A DNA stretch of 64,000 nucleotides, taken from Candidatus Nitrospinota bacterium M3_3B_026. Its GTDB lineage: Bacteria > Nitrospinota_A > UBA7883 > JBPRGF01. The stretch is from the NCBI GenBank assembly GCA_051418015.1, contig JBPRGF010000002.1, forward strand, positions 313 through 64,312, read 5' to 3'. Under the pieces are notes generated by a model, which saw only the letters and a program-made list of their open reading frames with translations, was not told the origin of the DNA and ran no database searches. Every line of letters begins with the position of its first letter. Within the stretch, counting starts at the first letter, position 1. Of this stretch, positions 45,075 through 64,000 are shown piece by piece. A program made the position numbers and the translations under genes.

Positions 45075-45414
45075 GTTATTACCTTCTCCAAGCGGCCCTT
45101 TCACTGACTCCATTAAAATTATATCACTAGATCATGACAGAACATATTCGAAACGATTCGAGCCGCTTACCACAAATCAGCGACAGGCACGAAAAGTCAA
45201 TTTACCCCCTTCTCAGAGCATCCAAAAGTCGTTTTACCCCCGCCTCACGGGAGACTAAAGTTAATTTGAATCCAATGAGCGGATTAAAAAAGCTCTGTCG
45301 TTCCTGCGTTTCATAGTGATCCAAATTCAGAACCTTTGGTTCGAAGATACCAAACAATCCACAGTCCCGGCTTATCGGAATCAAGCCCTTGAAAAATCGT
45401 CATTATTCCCAGCC

Positions 45415-49998: not shown

Positions 49999-51062
49999 AA
50001 CTGGCTCACGTGGTTGGGGCGCGGCCCCAGTTCATGCAAGCGGCGCCGCTGCGGCGTGAGCTGGAGGCGCGGGGCCATCGGGAAATCCTGATCCACACAG
50101 GCCAGCATTATGACTATGAGATGAGCCGGGTGTTTTTCGAAGAGCTGGGCATCCCGGCTCCGGACGTGAACCTGGAAGTGGGCTCCGCGGGCCACGGCGC
50201 CATGACGGGGAGGATCATCGAAGCGGTGGAACGCGCTCTCCTGGAAACACGCCCGGACGTGGTTATAGTGGACGGCGACACCAATTCCACGCTGGGGGGC
50301 GCTCTGGCCGCCGCGAAACTGCCCCTGCCCCTTGTCCACGTTGAATCGGGACTGAGAAGCGGCGACCGGCGCATGCCCGAGGAAGTGAACCGGATCGTTA
50401 CCGATCATGTGAGCGGCCTGCTGCTGGCGCCAACGGCCACGGCCATAGAGAACCTCGAGCGGGAAGGGCTCTCGGACCGGGCGACGCTGACGGGTGACCT
50501 GATGTGCGACTGCTACATCTCCTTCCGGGAAAAGGCCCGCCGCGCGGTGGTGGGCGAGCTTGGGCTCGGGGAGGGAGCTTACGCGCTGATAACGCTTCAC
50601 CGGGCCGAGAACACAAACGATCCGGAGCGCTTCACCGGCTTCATGAAAGGACTGGCGGCCCTGCCACTGCCGTCGATTTTTCCCGTCCATCCCCGCGCCC
50701 GGGCCATGGTCGACCTGTACCGGCGCAAGGGCGGCCCCATGGGCCAGATCAGGCTCACCGGGCCCAGGAGCTACCTCGAAATGATAGCCCTGGAGGAAGC
50801 GGCGGAGGTGGTGTTCACGGACTCCGGAGGGGTGCAGCGGGAAGCGTACCACGCAGGCGCGCCGTCCGTTGTGCTTCGTGATAACACCGAATGGCGCGAG
50901 CAGGTGGAGGCCGGCTGGACATATCTGGCCATGCCCAGCGAGGAATCCATATTGAGCGCCTACGAAAAAAGCCGCCGCCGCCCGGAAGAGCGCCCCGACA
51001 TTTACGGCGGCGGCGAAGCGGCAAAACGGATGGTCGACGCCATCGAGGCCCGCTTCGGTTGA
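49995..51062 (+). CDS. wecB: UDP-N-acetylglucosamine 2-epimerase (non-hydrolysing)
   Basis: 'VVGARPQFMQ', 'IHTGQHYDYEMS', 'GDTNSTLGGALAA', 'HVESGLRS'. ATGA overlap with the upstream gene. Confidence 0.92.
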   Translation: MKLAHVVGARPQFMQAAPLRRELEARGHREILIHTGQHYDYEMSRVFFEELGIPAPDVNLEVGSAGHGAMTGRIIEAVERALLETRPDVVIVDGDTNSTLGGALAAAKLPLPLVHVESGLRSGDRRMPEEVNRIVTDHVSGLLLAPTATAIENLEREGLSDRATLTGDLMCDCYISFREKARRAVVGELGLGEGAYALITLHRAENTNDPERFTGFMKGLAALPLPSIFPVHPRARAMVDLYRRKGGPMGQIRLTGPRSYLEMIALEEAAEVVFTDSGGVQREAYHAGAPSVVLRDNTEWREQVEAGWTYLAMPSEESILSAYEKSRRRPEERPDIYGGGEAAKRMVDAIEARFG

Positions 51063-56504: not shown

Positions 56505-58505
56505 ATGTGTGGCATTTGCGGCCTTGTTTCGCTGGGGGGCGGGCCAATCGACCCCGCGCGAGCCAAACCCATGCTTGACACGCTGACCCACCGGGGGCGG
56601 GACGACGCGGGATACGCCTTTTTCCGTTTGGGGGAGTATAAACAGACCGAGGGCAGCTACTGGATCAGCATGGTGGAGCCCGAGTTCCATCACCTCAACG
56701 AGCGCCTTGCCGTCTACGGGGGATCTCTCGCCAGCGAGGAGTTCGCGAGGACTCCGTTTTCGCTTGCGCTGGGGCATCGCCGCCTCTCGATCATCGACCT
56801 GAGCCACAAGGGCCACCAGCCCATGCACACCTCGGACCGGCGTTACTGGATCATCCTGAACGGGGAGATATACAACTATGTCGAGCTGAGGGAGGCGCTG
56901 GAGAGCCGCGGGCACATCTTCCGCTCCAACACCGACACCGAGACGATACTCCACCTGTGGGAGGAGAAGGGCGCCGCCTGCCTAGCCGAGCTGGACGGCA
57001 TGTTCGCCTTCGCGCTCTACGACCGGGTTGAGAACACGCTGACCCTGGCCCGCGACCGGTTCGGCGTTAAGCCGCTCTACTACGCCGAGGCGGGACCTTA
57101 TTTTCTGTTCGCCTCCGAGATCAAGGCCATCCTCGCGTCCGGCCTGGCCCCTCGCGGAATAGACCCCGCCGCTCTGGGCGAGTACTTCACCTTCCAGAAC
57201 ATAGTGAGCGACCACACACTCTTCGAGGGCGTGCGGATGCTTCCACCTGGTGAAAAGATCACAGTAAAACCCGGTTCCGGCGGCGGCGCGCGCAAGGAGC
57301 GCTATATAGACCCACTCGGCGAGGCTGACGAAAACACGCCGGATCCGGCGGCCGTCGCCGCCACCCTGGCCGACTCGTTCCAGGGCGCGGTCAGGCGGCA
57401 GCTACGCAGCGACGTGGAGATCGGGGCGTATCTCTCCGGTGGCATGGACAGCGGCTCCATCGTGGCCGTGTGCGGCAAGACCATGCCGCGGCTGCTTACA
57501 TTTACCGCCGGGTTCGACCTGACAAACGTGGACGGGATCGAGCAGGGTTTCGATGAGCGGCGGCTGGCCGAGAGGCTCTCGTACCTGTACCAGACCGAGC
57601 ACTACGACGTGGTTCTGCACGCGGGCGACATGCCGGCGGTCATGGACAAGCTGACCTGGCACGTAGACGACCCCCGCGTCGGCATGTGCCACCAGAACTG
57701 GTACGCCGCCAAGCTGGCCAGCAGGTTTGTGAAGGTCTGCCTCTCCGGCGCCGGCGGCGACGAAATGTTCGGCGGATACCCGTGGCGCTATCGGGGCATA
57801 GTCAGGTTGATGAACGAGGGAAAGATGCCGTATGAAGACGCCGTGTTCCGCTTCTGGCACAGGCTCCTGAACCCCGAGGAGCTGCCGCGTCTTTTTCACA
57901 CGGATTATCGTGAGAGCCTGACCGCCGCCCGCGAGCGGCTCGGCAGTGTCATACAATCATTGCCTGCGGGAAATCCCAGGCTGGGAGAGCTGGACGGCGT
58001 TATCCATCGCACGCTGGCGTTCGAGTTCAAGACATTCCTGCACGGTCTTCTTGTCATCGAGGACAGAGTCAGCATGGCTCATAATATGGAGGTCCGCGTT
58101 CCTTTTCTGGATAACGCCCTGGCGGCCCTGGCGTGGCGGCTTCCCCCATCCCTTAAGATGGATATGGCCCAGATCGGCGGCGGTAAAGGCGCGGCCGAAG
58201 AGGCGGGAGGGAAGAAGATTCTCCGCCGGGCGATGACCTCGCTGCTGCCTAAGGAGTACGTAAATCAGCGGAAGCAGGGGTTTTCGCCCCCCGATGGGAG
58301 CTGGTATCGCGGGCCCTCGGTCGATTATCTCAAGGAGATACTTTTCGATCAGCGGACGCTCTCCCGTCCATGGTTCGACCAGCGGTTCGTAGAGCAAAAG
58401 CTTTCGGAACATTTCACCGGCATGAGCAACCATCGGCTTCTGATCTGGTCCTTGTTGTCCTTCGAGCTGCTGCAACGGCACTTTATTGACGGGGGGCATA
58501 AATGA
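56505..58505 (+). CDS. Asparagine synthase-family glutamine amidotransferase, copy 2
   Basis: 'MCGICG', 'HRGRDD', PP-loop 'YLSGGMDSGS'; 666 aa. Confidence 0.9.
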   Translation: MCGICGLVSLGGGPIDPARAKPMLDTLTHRGRDDAGYAFFRLGEYKQTEGSYWISMVEPEFHHLNERLAVYGGSLASEEFARTPFSLALGHRRLSIIDLSHKGHQPMHTSDRRYWIILNGEIYNYVELREALESRGHIFRSNTDTETILHLWEEKGAACLAELDGMFAFALYDRVENTLTLARDRFGVKPLYYAEAGPYFLFASEIKAILASGLAPRGIDPAALGEYFTFQNIVSDHTLFEGVRMLPPGEKITVKPGSGGGARKERYIDPLGEADENTPDPAAVAATLADSFQGAVRRQLRSDVEIGAYLSGGMDSGSIVAVCGKTMPRLLTFTAGFDLTNVDGIEQGFDERRLAERLSYLYQTEHYDVVLHAGDMPAVMDKLTWHVDDPRVGMCHQNWYAAKLASRFVKVCLSGAGGDEMFGGYPWRYRGIVRLMNEGKMPYEDAVFRFWHRLLNPEELPRLFHTDYRESLTAARERLGSVIQSLPAGNPRLGELDGVIHRTLAFEFKTFLHGLLVIEDRVSMAHNMEVRVPFLDNALAALAWRLPPSLKMDMAQIGGGKGAAEEAGGKKILRRAMTSLLPKEYVNQRKQGFSPPDGSWYRGPSVDYLKEILFDQRTLSRPWFDQRFVEQKLSEHFTGMSNHRLLIWSLLSFELLQRHFIDGGHK

Positions 58506-59338
58506 GGGCGTTACTCGACCCTGGAGCCCATTGGCGGGCCACCAGGGAGATCATAGCTCTTTTGACCCACCATCGGCAACTGACCTGGGAGATGGCCAAG
58601 CGGGAGTTGCAGGACCGCTACGCCGGTCAGGTGATGGGCCTGATGTGGGCGGTGATCCATCCGGTGGCGATCATTCTCGTGTACCTTTTCCTGTTCATAA
58701 TCGTGTTCAAGGTCCGGTTTCCCCCGATGGAGGGGGTTACCATGGACTACGCCTCGTACATCCTGGCAGGCCTGATTCCGTGGTTCTACTTCCAGGAATC
58801 CATGATAAAAGGGTGCACGGCCATATCCAGCAACGCCCCCCTGGTAAAGCAGGTGGTGTTTCCCATAGAGGTGCTGCCGGTGAAGGGGGTGCTGGTATCG
58901 CTTCTAAGCCAGGCCGTGGCCACCGCCATCCTCCTTTGCTATATGCTTCTGCGCCACGGCGGCGTTCCATGGACCATCGTGTTTTTCCCGGCGGCGCTCC
59001 TGCTGGAGGGTCTCCTGATGACCGGTTTGAGCTATATCCTTTCGGCCGTCGGCGCCTACATCCGCGACGTGAAAGACATCGTGCAGGTGCTGCTCCTGAT
59101 GAGCATGTACCTTACCCCCACGTTCTACCTTCCCGCCATGGTACCCGCAACGTTCAAGTACGTGATCTACTTGAATCCCTTCAGTTACATGATCTGGGTG
59201 TTCCAGGATATATTTTTCTTCGGATGGTTTCAGCACCCGTGGGCGTGGGTGATATTCACGGGCGAGGCGCTGCTGGTTTTCTACGGAGGCTACCGAGTCT
59301 TCCGCAAGGCTAAAATGTTTTTCGGGAACGTGCTGTGA
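58502..59338 (+). CDS. wzm: ABC-2-type polysaccharide export permease
   Basis: ATGA overlap with the upstream gene; six hydrophobic segments; N-terminus 'ELQDRYAGQVMGLMWAVIHP' is typical of Wzm/TagG. Confidence 0.88.
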   Translation: MRALLDPGAHWRATREIIALLTHHRQLTWEMAKRELQDRYAGQVMGLMWAVIHPVAIILVYLFLFIIVFKVRFPPMEGVTMDYASYILAGLIPWFYFQESMIKGCTAISSNAPLVKQVVFPIEVLPVKGVLVSLLSQAVATAILLCYMLLRHGGVPWTIVFFPAALLLEGLLMTGLSYILSAVGAYIRDVKDIVQVLLLMSMYLTPTFYLPAMVPATFKYVIYLNPFSYMIWVFQDIFFFGWFQHPWAWVIFTGEALLVFYGGYRVFRKAKMFFGNVL

Positions 59339-60558
59339 GCGATAATGAAACCCCGGCCATCCGGGTCAGCGGCCTGTCGAAGATGTTCAGGGTCTACCAG
59401 CGGCCCGTCGACCTGGTAAAAGAGCTGATAACGGGCCGCCCCTATCACAGCGAGTTCTGGGCGCTCAAGGACGTTTCGTTCACCGTGGAGCGCGGCCAGG
59501 TGGTGGGCGTCATCGGCAGGAACGGCGCCGGCAAGAGCACTCTTCTGAAGATCATCGCCGGGACCCTGGACGCGACCGGCGGCGAGGTGAAGGCCAATGG
59601 CCGCGTATCGGCGCTTTTGGAGCTGGGGACGGGGTTCAACGTCGAACACACCGGCCATGACAACATCCTCATGGGCGGGATGTGCCTGGGGATGAGCAAG
59701 GAGGAGGTCGAACGCAAGTATGACTGGATCGTCGACTTCTCCGAGCTGAAGGATTTCATTCACCAGCCGGTTAAGACCTACTCGTCGGGGATGCTCTCCC
59801 GGCTGGCCTTCTCCGTCGCCATTTGCGTGGAGCCGGAGATATTCATCGTGGACGAGGCGCTGGCCACGGGGGATATCCGCTTCCAGGACAAATGCCTGCG
59901 CCAGATCAAAAGAATCGTCCAGAGCGGCGCGACGGTCCTTTTCGTGTCGCACAGCCTGCAGACGATTTACGACCTTTGCGACAGGACTATTCTCCTTGCT
60001 CATGGAGAAATCGCGAAAGATGGGGATCCCCGCGCTGTCGGAGACGCGTATGAGTTGATGCTTGCCCGGAGCGATGACGAGGACTATGCTCAGGCTCCGC
60101 TGGAAACAATAGTCAATCAAAAGGTCCACACCGGAAACAGCGCATATATAGAAAGTGTATGCGTCAAGAACGACAATGGTGTCCGTGTTGCGACGTTGAC
60201 CTACAGGGAGTGGTACACTGTCGAGGTTGTGGTTCACTGCAACGAGGATATGGAATCACTCGGCGTTGGATTCATGATCCAACTTCCATCCGGCATGAAA
60301 ATATACAACAAAAACACCAACAGTAATAATTTGCTTTTCACGTGCGAAAAAGGAGAAAAGCTCACGGTGAAATTCAGGTTTCAATGTCTGGTTATGGATG
60401 GTCCGTATTTCATTGGCGGAGGGCTTGGAAAGATTCACCGGGACGGCTCGTTCACGTTGCTGCATATGATGCGAAGCGCCATCACGGTCACGGTGACAGG
60501 CGGAAGCACAAAATTTCGGGGTATCGTTGATTTGCAGGCTGATATCTTATGCGAATGA
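59335..60558 (+). CDS. wzt: Polysaccharide export ABC ATPase with C-terminal carbohydrate-binding-type domain
   Basis: Walker A 'GRNGAGKST', signature 'YSSGMLSRLAF', Walker B 'IFIVDEAL'. There is an extra beta-rich C-terminal domain of about 150 aa. GTGA overlap with wzm. Confidence 0.9.
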   Translation: MSDNETPAIRVSGLSKMFRVYQRPVDLVKELITGRPYHSEFWALKDVSFTVERGQVVGVIGRNGAGKSTLLKIIAGTLDATGGEVKANGRVSALLELGTGFNVEHTGHDNILMGGMCLGMSKEEVERKYDWIVDFSELKDFIHQPVKTYSSGMLSRLAFSVAICVEPEIFIVDEALATGDIRFQDKCLRQIKRIVQSGATVLFVSHSLQTIYDLCDRTILLAHGEIAKDGDPRAVGDAYELMLARSDDEDYAQAPLETIVNQKVHTGNSAYIESVCVKNDNGVRVATLTYREWYTVEVVVHCNEDMESLGVGFMIQLPSGMKIYNKNTNSNNLLFTCEKGEKLTVKFRFQCLVMDGPYFIGGGLGKIHRDGSFTLLHMMRSAITVTVTGGSTKFRGIVDLQADILCE

Positions 60559-60617
60559 GAGGTTGCGCGGCTCCATCTTCGCGAGCATGGGCGCAAAGCG
60601 CGTATCGAAGATAAGCA

Positions 60618-61430
60618 ATGTGGTTTCTACCAAGATACAAGGCCCGGAACAGCGCGGCAAACTCCACGCGGCAGGTAAATCATCCTGATTTTATCGGGGT
60701 GGGGGCGGCCAAGTGCGGGACAACGTGGTGGCACAACCTCATTACGGCGCATCCTCAAGTGAGCGCTCTTCGTGGGGGTATCAAGCAGGCCAGTTTTTTT
60801 TGCGAATACATAGACAACATTCCTGACGAGCGCTTGCGGGAATATCAAGCCTTGTTTCTCCGGCCCGCCGGGATGATCGCGGGGGAATGGACTCCGCGCT
60901 ATATGTACGACAAGCACTCCGTGGATCTGATTAAAAAATACTTTCCCGACACAAAGATACTTGTGATTTTACGCGATCCGCTGGAACGCTTCCGAAGCGG
61001 GGTCAACTGGCATCTTGTGGAATCCGGGCCTGGGAAATACGCGTCGTTAGATGACTATTTGGATGGCCAATATTGCCATTGGTGGCCGCATAACATCGCG
61101 GACGCCCTGGCGCGCTCGATGTACTGGTATCAAATGCGGCATCTGGAGCAAGTATATAACCGCGCGAACATTCTTCTGTTGCAATATGAGAAATGCGTGC
61201 GCTGCCCAGAAACGGAACTCAAAAAGACCTATTCATTTCTGGGTCTTGATGCGGATTTCCTTCCCGACAATCTGGACGGGTCTATTAACGCTTCCACTTA
61301 CGTATATGATGTATTCACCTCAAACAACCTGCTGAAGGGAGTTCGTGGCATCCTGAAGGATGATGTCACACGGCTTGCGCGTGAATGGCCGGAAATCGAT
61401 ATCACGCTATGGCCCGGTTTCTCGGGATGA
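60618..61430 (+). CDS. PAPS-dependent sulfotransferase-family protein
   Basis: 5'-PSB-like 'GVGAAKCGTTWW' and 3'-PB-like 'ILRDPLERFRSGV'. Confidence 0.8.
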   Translation: MWFLPRYKARNSAANSTRQVNHPDFIGVGAAKCGTTWWHNLITAHPQVSALRGGIKQASFFCEYIDNIPDERLREYQALFLRPAGMIAGEWTPRYMYDKHSVDLIKKYFPDTKILVILRDPLERFRSGVNWHLVESGPGKYASLDDYLDGQYCHWWPHNIADALARSMYWYQMRHLEQVYNRANILLLQYEKCVRCPETELKKTYSFLGLDADFLPDNLDGSINASTYVYDVFTSNNLLKGVRGILKDDVTRLAREWPEIDITLWPGFSG

Positions 61431-64000
61431 AGCTCAAGACGCTGGGAGCAATGCGGCGCCGGATATACCAAATCATTGAACGCTTGACGAACAAGAACGC
61501 TCGCACAGCGATTAACCAATCTTCCGCCTCATGGAATATGGAATCCCGCGGCGATCCCATTATTCCGGTTATTCGTGAAAGAGCGCGCCGCAAGGGAGCC
61601 ATAGCGCGAGACGATCTTGAACAGGTGCTGTCCGCGTGCGGAGAGAGGGAATGGCGCCCTTACCACATGACGCCTGACCCGGATGGCGGGGCAAGAGGCT
61701 ATTTCAGGATGGATTGCAGCGGAGAGTTGTCCGCGGAATCCGAGTCATGCCTTGCAATGGCTCGCGAATACGGCATGATTCCCCTGGCGCTCCTGCCTGT
61801 CGCCGCAGGGAATGACGCGGGTGTCGCTTGTGAGGGCAGATTGCTGATGAGTGATGAATATCTCGCCTCGCTCGTTTCTCTTCATCGAGAATATGGTTGC
61901 GGGTACGGGTTCCTGGCCGATCCCCTGGCGGTGATAACCCGGTTGTTGTCCAACCCCCTGATGATCTGGACGAACACGAGGGAAAAGATAACCCAAGAGG
62001 GGCTGACCATCCACGGATATGGATGCTCCTTCCATAATGACCGAGCATCCTTGTTAAACATGATCTGGGTGTATCGCGTCGCCCAGAAGCTTATCACCGG
62101 CAACTACATGGACTTGCTGTCACGCCTGGGCTTCGATTGCCGCGAATGGACCTACGTCAAAAGCGGCGACCCCATGTGGCTGCGCCCTCTGGACGGGCTG
62201 TCCGACATATCCTTCACCGTCGCCAGGGATGAGCGCGTTTATCTCAGGGACGCCCAGATCACCACCGATCTCGCGCCAGAACTGACGCGGCGGCCTTTCC
62301 TGGACACCATACTTTACACCGACCGTGCGGGCTGGCGAAAGATTGACCGCGGCGGCGATGAGGGCGCTATCGAGCTTGACGATGTCCTTGCGGCCGTTGC
62401 GAACGGAGAAGCGCTTAAGAACATAGGTCTCATTATCGACCCTTCCGACATCGCATGGGAACGGGGCGCGAAACACGCCCGGACGAATACCGCTGACACG
62501 CCGGTGGTGAGAACATTGCCATATCCGTACCACTATTACCTGGCCATTTGCAGCGACATTGACTGGTCAACGCATTCCCATTTCACCGGGGCCGTAGACG
62601 TCATTTGCGACGAGCTCGGCATGCGCTATTCCGGCAGCGCATACTTGTGCTCCCGTGATCCGAAATGGCCCTCATTGTGCGGGGACGCAAACACCGCCAA
62701 TGGCATGGAGCGCCTGGACCCCGGCAACCCCGTGCTGCATTGGGCCGGGGAAGGTCTTATTGATACCATACACGGCGTTGCGTACTCTTATGATTCACTG
62801 ACACTCGGCCGGAATGTCGGCTGCTCAGCGGGGGAGGCCGTGATCGAGCTGCGTCCATCCATCGACATGAGCGGTTATGACGGCGTCATGATCGCGACTT
62901 CATCCATCGTTGATCCCTCGCGCCCCCCCCGCATCGCCTTGCTGGGCCAGAGCGGCCGGAAAATCCACATGACCATGAACGGCTCATATACAGCCGGCAG
63001 GCCGCGCAGCCAGCACATCACTTATCACCCCAACGAAACGCTCGATGAAGCAATAAAGGGCATCGTGTTGTCCAATTGCCCGGATGGCTTTGTCGCGAGA
63101 GAGATTACCACGCTCTACGCTGGAGAGCCAAGCGTCTCCGCCATGTTACGGTTACTTGGCTCATATAACCTGACGATGCCTGTGTTCACCACCCATGGCG
63201 GAGGCTCGGACAGAAAATTCGCCTCACTTGGAACGGCGCAGTATTGCGCCATCAATGACATTGACACCAGCATGGCGATGGATAATCCCGGCTCGCCCTT
63301 TTACTTGCTGCCGGCGCTCAAGTCGTTTGGGGCGCGCTTCTTCAATCCGGAGGGATTATTTTCCGATGATGCGCTACGAGACATAGATACACTCGTGGAG
63401 CCCATGACTACAATAAGCGGTGAGCGGATATACGCCTTTTGCCGTTACTACAGCAGCCGTGATTATAAGTTAAGTTATGGAAAACATAACGCGACCGCCC
63501 AGGGTATCGCCGTGACGCTGGACGAGATTATTCATAGGCTGCGCCGCGCGGAGCCTGGAAAGGGTTGCGTCGTGTATACCCACTTGGGGCATCGAGTGGG
63601 GAACAACATAACCAGCCGGCTTGGCTGGAACGAAGAAGTATTCGCTTCATTAGGCCGGGTGGCCGAGTATTCCCAAGGGAAGGACAGGGACAATACCGTG
63701 CCTTATAGAATATGGTTTGCGCCAACATCCGCGATATTAACGTACTCGGCGGTCATGAAAGGTATCAGAAGCGCAATACGATACGAAAACGGTGATATAC
63801 ATATAACATCATGGCATGACCCGGCTCTGGGACATTCTATCCCAAACCCCACCGAGTTCGGGGAAAGCTGGCTGCACGGCGTGACCATTGCCATTCCAGA
63901 AAACGCAAGCGGACGGGTCTATGTGGATGGGACGGAATGTCTTTACTATACTACCAACCCTCCTGACGCCTTGAGCGGGAAAAGTGTAACGATCGTGGAC
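61427..64000 (+). CDS. Large hypothetical protein, 858 codons or more, 3' end outside window
   Basis: I translated every codon from the ATG at 61427 (ATGA overlap with the sulfotransferase stop) to nt 64000 and found no in-frame stop. It is absent from the supplied ORF track because it has no stop in the window. No family recognised. Confidence 0.85.
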   Translation, partial: MKLKTLGAMRRRIYQIIERLTNKNARTAINQSSASWNMESRGDPIIPVIRERARRKGAIARDDLEQVLSACGEREWRPYHMTPDPDGGARGYFRMDCSGELSAESESCLAMAREYGMIPLALLPVAAGNDAGVACEGRLLMSDEYLASLVSLHREYGCGYGFLADPLAVITRLLSNPLMIWTNTREKITQEGLTIHGYGCSFHNDRASLLNMIWVYRVAQKLITGNYMDLLSRLGFDCREWTYVKSGDPMWLRPLDGLSDISFTVARDERVYLRDAQITTDLAPELTRRPFLDTILYTDRAGWRKIDRGGDEGAIELDDVLAAVANGEALKNIGLIIDPSDIAWERGAKHARTNTADTPVVRTLPYPYHYYLAICSDIDWSTHSHFTGAVDVICDELGMRYSGSAYLCSRDPKWPSLCGDANTANGMERLDPGNPVLHWAGEGLIDTIHGVAYSYDSLTLGRNVGCSAGEAVIELRPSIDMSGYDGVMIATSSIVDPSRPPRIALLGQSGRKIHMTMNGSYTAGRPRSQHITYHPNETLDEAIKGIVLSNCPDGFVAREITTLYAGEPSVSAMLRLLGSYNLTMPVFTTHGGGSDRKFASLGTAQYCAINDIDTSMAMDNPGSPFYLLPALKSFGARFFNPEGLFSDDALRDIDTLVEPMTTISGERIYAFCRYYSSRDYKLSYGKHNATAQGIAVTLDEIIHRLRRAEPGKGCVVYTHLGHRVGNNITSRLGWNEEVFASLGRVAEYSQGKDRDNTVPYRIWFAPTSAILTYSAVMKGIRSAIRYENGDIHITSWHDPALGHSIPNPTEFGESWLHGVTIAIPENASGRVYVDGTECLYYTTNPPDALSGKSVTIVD

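Follow-up and report, generated by a model that had tools for sequence, protein, structure and literature searches.

In ABC-transporter-dependent O-antigen-type pathways, a cap at the chain terminus sets chain length and serves as the quality check for export (PMC9445017, PMC11231755). The terminal groups named for these systems are methyl, methyl-phosphate, and Kdo, and sulfate is not among them (PMC9445017, PMC11231755); in all studied systems, the terminator is carried by coiled-coil proteins (PMC11231755). The WbdD systems of Escherichia coli O9a and Klebsiella pneumoniae O3 and of E. coli O8 and K. pneumoniae O5 have the gene order wzm, wzt, and modifying enzyme, and their Wzt proteins end in a jelly-roll carbohydrate-binding domain (CBD) that is specific to the serotype (PMC9445017, PMC11231755). 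The Wzt of Aquifex aeolicus (WzmWzt structures 7k2t, 8dku, and 8dky) reads 3-O-methyl-mannose or -rhamnose in a hydrophobic pocket with Trp362 as its lid (PMC9445017). In WbbB of K. pneumoniae O12 and Raoultella terrigena and in ORF6 of K. pneumoniae O7, the terminator, a coiled coil, and glycosyltransferase (GT) modules are combined in one protein. The O-antigen cluster of Aeromonas salmonicida A450 encodes, in this order, Wzt (438 aa), a sulfotransferase-domain protein of 216 aa, and WbbB (1122 aa); no sulfate was reported in its O-antigen, and the sulfotransferase gene was left unexplained (PMC4483657). We found no Wzt linked to a sulfate cap in the literature searched.

Here, we analyzed a 64,000-nucleotide stretch of a genome of Candidatus Nitrospinota bacterium M3_3B_026 (the window), in which the exporter and sulfotransferase genes wzm, wzt, and ST1 occupy positions 58502-61430. 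The locus is best explained as the part of an ABC-transporter-dependent glycan pathway that confers specificity. Its features, in window positions and, for the last two, in positions of the cluster (L002), are as follows.

58502..59338, + strand: wzm, ABC-2 permease of the glycan exporter (ABC2_membrane, E 1.7e-12; NCBIfam Wzm/RfbD-like match)
59335-60558, + strand: wzt, whole gene, 407 aa
59335..60069, + strand: wzt nucleotide-binding domain (NBD), residues 1-245 (ABC_tran, PF00005, E 2.7e-22)
60070..60558, + strand: wzt C-terminal CBD, rare subtype (Wzt_C, 75 bits)
60618..61430, + strand: ST1, predicted PAPS-dependent carbohydrate sulfotransferase, heparan sulfate 3-OST-like, 270 aa (Sulfotransfer_3, Sulfotransfer_1)
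61385..64000, + strand: 5' part of a 1134-aa cytoplasmic open reading frame (ORF) that runs to C2:65101 (L002:5698-9102)
L002:9153-10640: STMT, sulfotransferase-methyltransferase fusion (Sulfotransfer_3 N-domain and SAM methyltransferase C-domain)
L002:11877-13049: MT390, coiled-coil methyltransferase (Trm112-type zinc ribbon and SAM methyltransferase domain)

The partner permease is encoded alongside Wzt, with the wzm stop overlapping the wzt start, and this wzm is 40 to 48% identical to that of the related loci L013, L039, L041, and L051. The ATPase domain of Wzt is of the Wzt/TagH type, and the best whole-protein match is the A. aeolicus Wzt (8dku/7k2t, E about 1e-81 over residues 9-366; 3.5e-81 for 8dku), which has the same two-domain build. 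The C-terminal binding module named in a preliminary description of this DNA proved to be a genuine CBD by both profile and fold: Wzt_C (PF14524) matches residues 268-400 (E 6.6e-21; 75 bits, with the cut-off at 30.4), an AlphaFold2 model of the domain is a confident jelly roll (pLDDT 91.8), and the top Foldseek matches of that model are all Wzt CBDs (2r5o, which is the E. coli O9a Wzt-C, TM 0.82; 5hno, 0.77; 8dky, 0.74). The CBD is only 20% identical to 2r5o, and its identity to all three CBDs whose specificity is known (2r5o, 8dky, and 5hno; methyl, methyl-phosphate, and Kdo) is 16 to 21%. Searching PDB sequences with the CBD alone (phmmer) gave chance matches only, and a separate homologous-protein search returned just the query; among 1.84 billion representative proteins, two relatives exceeded 40% identity. 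P0006 is a third member of this CBD subtype, to which P0087 also belongs. From its sequence, we predict a cap-reading CBD of a rare subtype that binds the non-reducing end.

The enzyme encoded after wzt is where the locus departs from the WbdD systems, being a PAPS sulfotransferase instead of a methyltransferase or kinase-methyltransferase and having neither a coiled-coil ruler nor a membrane helix. As had been described, the sulfotransferase gene follows wzt directly, as a separate gene in another reading frame after a 59-nt gap. ST1 matches Sulfotransfer_3 (E 8.7e-16) and Sulfotransfer_1 (E 1.3e-12), both above cut-off, and the two PAPS-binding-type motifs already pointed out in it are the 5'-PSB loop (AAKCGTTWW) and the 3'-PB motif (RDPLERFRS). 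In alignments with the uncharacterized bacterial protein 3rnl (E 7e-12) and heparan sulfate 3-O-sulfotransferase 1 (HS3ST1; E 1e-6), which share its PAPS-binding loops and catalytic-Glu motif at low identity, the PSB and PB motifs coincide and GEWTP of ST1 falls on the catalytic-Glu motif EKTPAY of HS3ST1; pairing with an ABC exporter is a bacterial feature. PAPS supply is accounted for by an APS kinase (PF01583, 223 bits) encoded on contig C33. With 270 aa, ST1 is a bare catalytic domain that has no coiled coil, unlike the terminators of studied systems. About seven sulfotransferase-like genes are present in the genome.

The order of protein sizes in the A. salmonicida cluster (438, 216, and 1122 aa) is mirrored here (407, 270, and 1134 aa), but the tools used detected no WbbB similarity in the 1134-aa ORF. 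Searches of this ORF gave no match in Pfam, NCBIfam, or the PDB and no usable Atlas match, and we found no transmembrane segment and no recognizable GT or coiled-coil domain in it; ST1 itself lies outside a fusion of the WbbB/ORF6 kind. The ORF aligns over 1000 aa, at 27% identity, with an ORF of locus L037 located just upstream of a sulfotransferase-methyltransferase gene.

We assign ST1 to this exporter as its dedicated PAPS-dependent sulfotransferase, because its ortholog is fused to Wzt in a related cluster, it shares a low-GC block with the CBD, the CBD is replaced where ST1 is lacking, and sulfotransferases recur next to wzt. The fusion is P0005, a single polypeptide of 685 aa (Wzt, Wzt_C, and sulfotransferase) that is one of the two close CBD relatives; it is 56% identical to this Wzt, with a C-terminal domain 53% identical to ST1. 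It is encoded in L013, a syntenic cluster in a Thermodesulfobacteriota MAG and the only orthologous cluster, where the ST1 ortholog is joined in frame to the CBD; a search for ST1 homologs among longer proteins recovered only P0005. A second polypeptide, P0037 (910 aa), combines Wzt and Wzt_C with a homolog of STMT, the other sulfotransferase protein of the cluster (35% identity over 493 aa). Sulfotransferases therefore do accompany wzt elsewhere, up to in-frame fusion, and the CBD does not cluster with modules known to read methyl, methyl-phosphate, or Kdo; on both points, the earlier suggestion that a sulfate cap acts as the export signal withstood scrutiny. The NBD of this Wzt is 53 to 61% identical to those of six related Wzt proteins (53 to 65% among all seven), whereas the CBDs are conserved (45 to 53%) only within G000, L013, and P0006; in the others, all without ST1, they are 22 to 31% identical or cannot be aligned. 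Related clusters without ST1 thus keep a similar ATPase domain with a replaced CBD, matching the serotype-specific CBDs of the WbdD systems.

Base composition marks the same junction. The ATPase part of wzt has 60.5% GC (GC3 0.82) and the CBD-coding part 47.4% (GC3 0.57), in a genome of 61.6% GC in which only 1.4% of 500-bp windows are at or below 48%. GC3 is 0.60 in ST1 and 0.65 in the 1134-aa ORF, which lies in the same low-GC block; the block formed by CBD and ST1 starts at the ATPase/CBD junction both here and in L013, where the CBD, ST1, and next ORF are likewise lowest in GC3. Hand counts of G+C in the preliminary description were correct (46.7% at 60241-60300, 31.7% at 60301-60360, and 71.7% at 50041-50100), but its statement that the Wzt extension is the most AT-rich part of the window was not, since 45101-45400, in a tRNA-Ala islet, is marginally lower (42.7% versus 43.7% in 300-bp windows). 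CBD and ST1 look like one co-transferred cassette; such a cassette would be transferred from genome to genome by recombination at the ATPase/CBD junction of wzt.

ST1 very probably sulfates the exported polymer in some position. As to the position, the reading developed here, that sulfate, alone or with methyl on the same terminal sugar, is the chain-ending cap and export ticket, is possible but falls somewhat short of probable. Wzm and Wzt would export an undecaprenyl-linked polymer, and ST1, acting in the cytoplasm at the exporter, would add sulfate at the non-reducing end of the chain or adjacent to it. Before export, the CBD would have to bind an epitope that includes this sulfate, possibly with a methyl group; like the methyl, methyl-phosphate, and Kdo groups of studied systems, the sulfate would both stop elongation and license export. 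The cap would thus be written by a sulfotransferase located at, or fused to, the exporter and read by a CBD subtype whose pocket is predicted to be lined with His and Arg.

We placed the residues of that pocket by profile-based sequence alignment with the cap site of Aquifex (PMC9445017) and not from coordinates. In this CBD, Met takes the position of the methyl-stacking Trp362, R395 stands where Aquifex has Val380, and H368 and R369 lie in the trap loop, while hydrophobic residues F313, M314, and M378 are retained. Among 62 aligned sequences, the combination of Met, H368/R369, and R395 is common only to the fused ortholog. On the basic, anion-binding pocket that had been put forward for structural checking, the analysis covered the confident CBD model and this sequence mapping.

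Several observations weigh against a sulfate cap. The evidence that CBD and ST1 co-vary comes from two genomes, which are the closest relatives overall as well, and MT390 and the 1134-aa ORF co-vary with the CBD too. The nearest characterized relatives of ST1 sulfate internal residues of polymers, and 13 Acidimicrobiales loci encode homologs of 30 to 35% identity without a wzm or wzt inside 10 kb. In locus L114, an ST1-family gene directly follows wzt, yet the lid of the CBD is Trp and its pocket contains no basic residue. The scatter of sulfotransferase-linked CBDs over the sampled Wzt proteins, given below, likewise counts against this reading or is neutral to it.

Backbone sulfation combined with a methyl cap is about as likely as a sulfate cap, and we regard it with the same reserve. 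MT390 would then terminate the chain, the CBD would read the methylated end in the manner of E. coli O8 or Aquifex, and ST1 would decorate internal residues, its place by the exporter meaning only that the chain is sulfated during or just before threading into the channel. MT390 is a candidate for a conventional terminator: its C-terminal region has a heptad stretch, seen by eye and then checked (8/8 hydrophobic residues at a/d positions), and a basic amphipathic end, its ortholog in L013 gave weak matches to coiled-coil families, and a coiled coil is the marker of terminators (PMC11231755). Within this cluster, such a stretch was noticed only in MT390. The likeness of ST1 to enzymes acting on internal residues, the existence of ST1-like genes without wzt or beside a Trp-lid CBD (L114), and the retained F313, M314, and M378 also fit a methyl cap, and the two sulfotransferase and three methyltransferase domains held by the cluster suggest heavy decoration of the polymer. 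On the other side, the lid residue in this CBD subtype is Met or Ile and not the Trp or Tyr of 74/131 sampled CBDs, the composition of MT390 (GC3 0.73) is closer to that of the host than are those of the CBD and ST1, and a methyl cap leaves the co-inheritance and in-frame fusion of CBD and ST1 without a reason.

It is improbable that STMT and the adjacent CE4-type deacetylase make the cap, for example an N-deacetylated, N-methylated, or N-sulfated terminal amino sugar, with ST1 in an accessory role. STMT would be a two-activity terminator in the manner of WbdD: it joins a SAM methyltransferase domain to a sulfotransferase domain in which 5'-PSB and 3'-PB-like motifs occur. Its gene comes directly after wzt in L039 and L041; in L051, the protein encoded after wzt is a fusion of STMT and a radical-SAM domain, and P0037 joins STMT to Wzt. 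A protein of CE4 deacetylase fold follows STMT in every locus for which downstream sequence is available; its RHDVD, HND, AHNS, and HPEY motifs are invariant, and it reaches VIA Z scores of 10.8 to PplD and 10.2 to 10.4 to IcaB, PgaB, and WbmS. However, STMT is 40 to 55% conserved across loci whose Wzt CBDs are mutually unrelated (16 to 31%), so its product cannot set CBD specificity, and in L035 and L036 the neighbor of the STMT-deacetylase module is not Wzm/Wzt but a Wzx-type flippase, whose pathway does not require a cap; on these two grounds, we rejected STMT as the setter of CBD type. STMT also has no coiled coil. We did not find it in 32 further genomes from the phylum to which the window belongs, and in 401 genomes of the phylum of the L013 MAG the only strong full-length match was in that MAG itself, five other genomes giving weak partial ones; a search among longer proteins gave no homologs but missed even P0037. 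It is very improbable that adjacency is fortuitous and that ST1 acts on a lipid, protein, or small molecule within a horizontally acquired island, as the several other sulfotransferase-like genes and the compositionally foreign region might suggest, given the in-frame fusion of its ortholog to Wzt, the syntenic counterpart of the entire cluster in a different phylum, and the recurrence of sulfotransferases directly after wzt (12/131 sampled loci).

A sulfate cap, if real, would be a new chemistry at the control point for chain length and export, would tie sulfur (PAPS) metabolism to envelope assembly, and could account for orphan sulfotransferase genes located next to wzt, that of A. salmonicida among them. 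If the cap reading is wrong, an exporter-tethered sulfotransferase would still couple decoration to export, an arrangement undescribed in the literature searched. Fusions of Wzt and CBD to a sulfotransferase or to a sulfotransferase-methyltransferase, and of a sulfotransferase to a CBD, offer simple test constructs.

The recurrence was surveyed in the same 401 Thermodesulfobacteriota genomes, which hold 131 CBD-bearing wzt genes, 12 of them with a Pfam-verified sulfotransferase directly downstream or fused. Fusions of Sulfotransfer_2 and Wzt_C occur in four genomes. Among the relatives sampled, the wzt-linked sulfotransferase of L156 has a coiled coil, and L142 encodes a 1511-aa protein in which a sulfotransferase-like N-terminal module, matched only by a custom profile, precedes WbsX, GT1, and GT2; in both, the sulfotransferase domain takes the N-terminal “terminator” place of WbbB/ORF6-type proteins. 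Open frames of 650 to 790 aa with Wzt_C were rejected as further fusions, being stop-to-stop frames, and only L013 among them has a real post-CBD extension together with an NBD. We also rejected a universal “sulfate-type” CBD clade, since sulfotransferase-linked CBDs share 22.0% mean identity against 21.6% for all pairs; nearest-neighbor concordance for sulfotransferase linkage among the 131 Wzt proteins was 7/18 by CBD and 9/18 by NBD. The co-variation of CBD type with sulfotransferases, proposed earlier as a check, is seen for the two genomes with ST1 and does not extend to a common clade among the 131.

Across these CBDs, the sulfotransferase-linked group showed no significant overall enrichment in basic pocket residues (Lys+Arg 1.28 versus 0.94, p 0.21), and this idea was set aside, while acidic pocket residues were fewer (1.28 versus 1.88, p 0.009). 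The Trp362 position is Arg in 9/12 directly sulfotransferase-linked CBDs and in 16/119 others, an association with p 1.3e-5 by sequence count that is not significant by CBD cluster (p 0.12-0.19), and we treat Arg at the lid as a lead only. Separately, several Arg-lid Wzt proteins without a sulfotransferase precede large proteins that begin with a methyltransferase domain and in two cases have GT2 modules, an arrangement consistent with other anionic caps.

The pairing reported in the preliminary description, a Wzt with a C-terminal carbohydrate-binding domain (CBD) and a sulfotransferase encoded next to it, is confirmed by domain matches and by a model of the CBD. The sulfotransferase (ST1) has both of the motifs that had been named, and its gene belongs to a cluster that runs past the window end on contig C2, of which the window is 313-64312 (L002 is the stretch of this contig read to extend the cluster):

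56505-58505, + strand: AsnB-type amidotransferase
58502-59338, + strand: wzm
59335-60558, + strand: wzt
60618-61430, + strand: ST1, 270-aa sulfotransferase, 59 nt after wzt and in another frame
61385-64000, + strand, continuing to C2:65101: 1134-aa cytoplasmic ORF, directly after ST1
L002:9153-11854 (C2:65152-67853), just beyond the window end and after the 1134-aa ORF: STMT, 495 aa, with N-terminal Sulfotransfer_3 and C-terminal SAM methyltransferase domains, followed by a 401-aa protein with no Pfam hit
L002:11877-13049 (C2:67876-69048): MT390, 390-aa methyltransferase
After MT390: GT1-type and GT4-type glycosyltransferases

The genome can make PAPS and contains about seven sulfotransferase-like genes. 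Searches of Pfam, NCBIfam, PDB sequences, and the ESM Atlas returned nothing for the 1134-aa ORF, in which no membrane segment is predicted; in metagenome locus L037, a homolog of 979 aa with 27% identity to it immediately precedes STMT.

Residues 268 to 400 of Wzt match Wzt_C far over the Pfam threshold, and the CBD model (AlphaFold2, alignment of 62 sequences) has a pLDDT of 91.8. The three solved Wzt carbohydrate-binding domains are precisely the structures it matches best: those from Escherichia coli O9a (2r5o; TM 0.82), Raoultella/Klebsiella O12, a Kdo reader (5hno; TM 0.77), and Aquifex aeolicus, a 3-O-methyl sugar reader (8dky; TM 0.74). These matches, at only 16 to 21% identity, indicate that the modeled domain is a true CBD whose specificity is not inferable from any relative. 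HMMER, run in full against 1.84 billion cluster representatives, returned 82 CBD relatives, just two of them above 40% identity, and a word-based search of 5.8 billion proteins with the CBD gave no match besides the query itself.

The closest relative, P0005, is a 685-aa protein comprising ABC_tran, Wzt_C, an acidic linker of ~30 residues, and a sulfotransferase; identity is 56% between its Wzt part and the window Wzt and 53% between its final 250 residues and ST1. It is encoded on a 471-kb contig of an uncultured Thermodesulfobacteriota MAG (locus L013) within a cluster syntenic with that of the window (STMT, 55% identity; 401-aa protein, 50%; MT390, 38%), in the order epimerase, AsnB, wzm, wzt::ST1, an ORF of no assigned function (465 aa, in the position of the 1134-aa ORF), STMT, 401-aa protein, MT390, GT1, and AsnB. 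A more distant relative, P0037 (910 aa), joins Wzt and Wzt_C to a complete STMT homolog, with 35% identity over 493 aa. As these two fusions show, ST1 and STMT each have a homolog covalently joined to the exporter CBD in other organisms. Four genomes encode, 5 to 6 kb downstream of wzt, a Sulfotransfer_2 domain with its own Wzt_C, so that the reader domain of the exporter is duplicated on the sulfotransferase; the two are fused in proteins of ~550 to 570 aa at L057:12556-14199, L139:6206-7906, and L153:6188-7885 and split at L080:12897-14341. The upstream wzt in these genomes encodes a CBD with a Trp at the position of Aquifex Trp362 (the lid). At one metagenome locus, the gene after wzt (L051:2896-5232) encodes a radical-SAM domain fused to the N terminus of an STMT homolog.

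The proposal had called for a check of whether the Wzt C-domain type co-varies with the presence of a sulfotransferase across genomes, and co-occurrence of sulfotransferase genes with wzt was found elsewhere. We sampled 401 genomes from the phylum of the Thermodesulfobacteriota MAG, took 7 kb on each side of the 150 Wzt_C matches listed, and identified sulfotransferases among called ORFs with our own profiles and motifs, followed by Pfam confirmation. The sample comprised 131 distinct two-domain Wzt proteins; a sulfotransferase is encoded within 7 kb of 19 of them, and in 12 of the 19 cases it is either fused or encoded by the gene that comes next. One of the 12, L156, has a sulfotransferase with a coiled-coil tail, with weaker matches of the same kind at L146; another, L142, has a 1511-aa protein whose N terminus matches only our own sulfotransferase profile and is followed by Pfam WbsX, GT1, and GT2. 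The layout of L156 and L142 is the one by which terminators are defined in the Klebsiella and E. coli models (PMC11231755). A published parallel for a sulfotransferase gene after wzt is the Aeromonas salmonicida cluster (Wzt, sulfotransferase-domain protein, WbbB), where the authors left the gene unexplained (PMC4483657). The literature searched yielded no description of a sulfate cap or of a sulfotransferase working with Wzt; new from this locus are the orthologous Wzt-CBD-sulfotransferase fusion, a cassette boundary inside wzt, and the sampled frequency. We consider it highly probable that ST1 is a sulfotransferase dedicated to the exporter.

Where ST1 places its sulfate is less certain. The preliminary description had proposed a terminal sulfate recognized by Wzt and suggested looking for a basic anion-binding pocket. 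We placed the window sequence on the Aquifex cap site (PMC9445017) via HMMER alignments rather than coordinates. The methyl-pocket residues Leu300, Thr346, and Ala348 are here M314, G361, and G363; the lid Trp362, which stacks on the methyl group, is M378; the trap loop (352 to 356) is I-H368-R369-D-G; and Val380, a cap contact from the partner subunit, is R395. The combination of H368, R/K369, and R395 is common only to the window CBD and its fused ortholog among 62 aligned sequences. Basic residue counts in the pocket do not differ significantly between sulfotransferase-linked and other CBDs, and the sulfotransferase-linked CBDs form no clade among the 131 Wzt proteins. Acidic pocket residues are fewer in the linked group. 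An Arg lid occurs in 9 of the 12 directly linked CBDs versus 16 of 119 others (p 1.3e-5, among sequences related to each other), an association that is not significant when counted by CBD cluster (p 0.12 to 0.19). The pocket evidence for an anion-reading CBD is thus suggestive, not decisive. Five of 10 Arg-lid Wzt proteins checked that lack a sulfotransferase precede proteins that begin with a methyltransferase domain, and two of these proteins also have GT2 modules; their products may be methyl-phosphate caps, consistent with an Arg that reads an anion. Directly after another Arg-lid, CBD-bearing wzt, L143:7576-9027 encodes a sulfatase/alkaline-phosphatase superfamily protein (PF00884, E 4e-40), a candidate phospho-group transferase or sulfatase for the same polymer.

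A terminal sulfate read by the CBD is a tentative proposal, to which we give somewhat less than even chances, and we rate it level with a more ordinary arrangement, backbone sulfation combined with a methyl cap. In MT390, a SAM methyltransferase domain is accompanied by a Trm112-like zinc ribbon, by a heptad stretch at ~residues 329 to 360, and by a C terminus that is basic and amphipathic; by the field's rule that the coiled-coil protein is the terminator, MT390 is a candidate WbdD(O8)-like terminator and the main rival to a sulfate cap. ST1 is without a coiled-coil tail, and its characterized relatives sulfate internal residues. Homologs of ST1 at 30 to 35% identity, in 13 Acidimicrobiales loci, have no wzm/wzt within 10 kb, and at L114, an ST1-family gene directly follows a wzt whose CBD has a Trp lid. 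A tethered sulfotransferase could also sulfate the chain during its passage into the channel.

The ST1 gene appears to travel with the CBD. Among seven related Wzt proteins, the ATPase domains (NBDs) are uniformly 53 to 65% identical and the CBDs fall into unrelated groups; only the window Wzt, that of L013, and P0006 have a common CBD subtype (45 to 53%), the others being 22 to 31% identical or unalignable. STMT as the determinant of CBD type is ruled out by these unrelated CBDs across STMT loci. Three genes track the window CBD subtype, namely ST1, the following ORF, and MT390, and composition separates them a little: the GC3 series is 0.82 (NBD), 0.57 (CBD), 0.60 (ST1), 0.65 (1134-aa ORF), 0.73 (MT390), and 0.81 (GT1), and in L013 it is again lowest in the CBD, ST1, and the next ORF. 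The G+C values first counted by hand were reproduced, although the Wzt extension is not quite the most AT-rich part of the window, since one spot within the tRNA-Ala islet, at about 45.1 kb, exceeds it slightly. The simplest reading is that CBD-ST1 is one cassette recombining where the NBD and CBD parts of wzt meet. As a whole, the system is foreign to its host: STMT was not found in the 32 other species genomes of the phylum (33 in total), where the best Wzt matches do not extend through the CBD, ending ahead of it or inside it, and reach no more than 52% identity, in the ATPase part, versus 61% to the Thermodesulfobacteriota MAG. This closeness, together with the host-like codon composition of the ATPase domain, points to an older transfer of wzm-wzt, with the CBD-ST1 part exchanged afterward.

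Scanning metagenomes with STMT yielded 19 loci, all of which lack ST1. A homolog of the 401-aa protein follows STMT wherever downstream sequence is present, usually with GT1 next. The fold of this protein is that of a CE4 polysaccharide deacetylase (VIA Z 10.8 to PplD and 10.2 to 10.4 to IcaB, PgaB, and the O-antigen protein WbmS), and its RHDVD, HND, AHNS, and HPEY motifs are invariant. The pair occurs in the 19 loci with either Wzm/Wzt, directly upstream of STMT in L039, L041, and L051, or a Wzx-type flippase, which takes the wzm/wzt position in L035 and L036. The presence of a deacetylase beside a sulfotransferase-methyltransferase suggests that an amino sugar is de-N-acetylated and then N- or O-substituted, the same logic, with no homology, as in eukaryotic N-deacetylase/N-sulfotransferases; the pair may represent a bacterial module that deacetylates amino sugars and then sulfates or methylates them.

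The organism probably exports two capped glycans, since its genome encodes a second CBD-bearing Wzt on contig C29 (G000:C29:110688-111770; 449-aa frame, 38% identical to the window Wzt, Wzt_C 109 bits).
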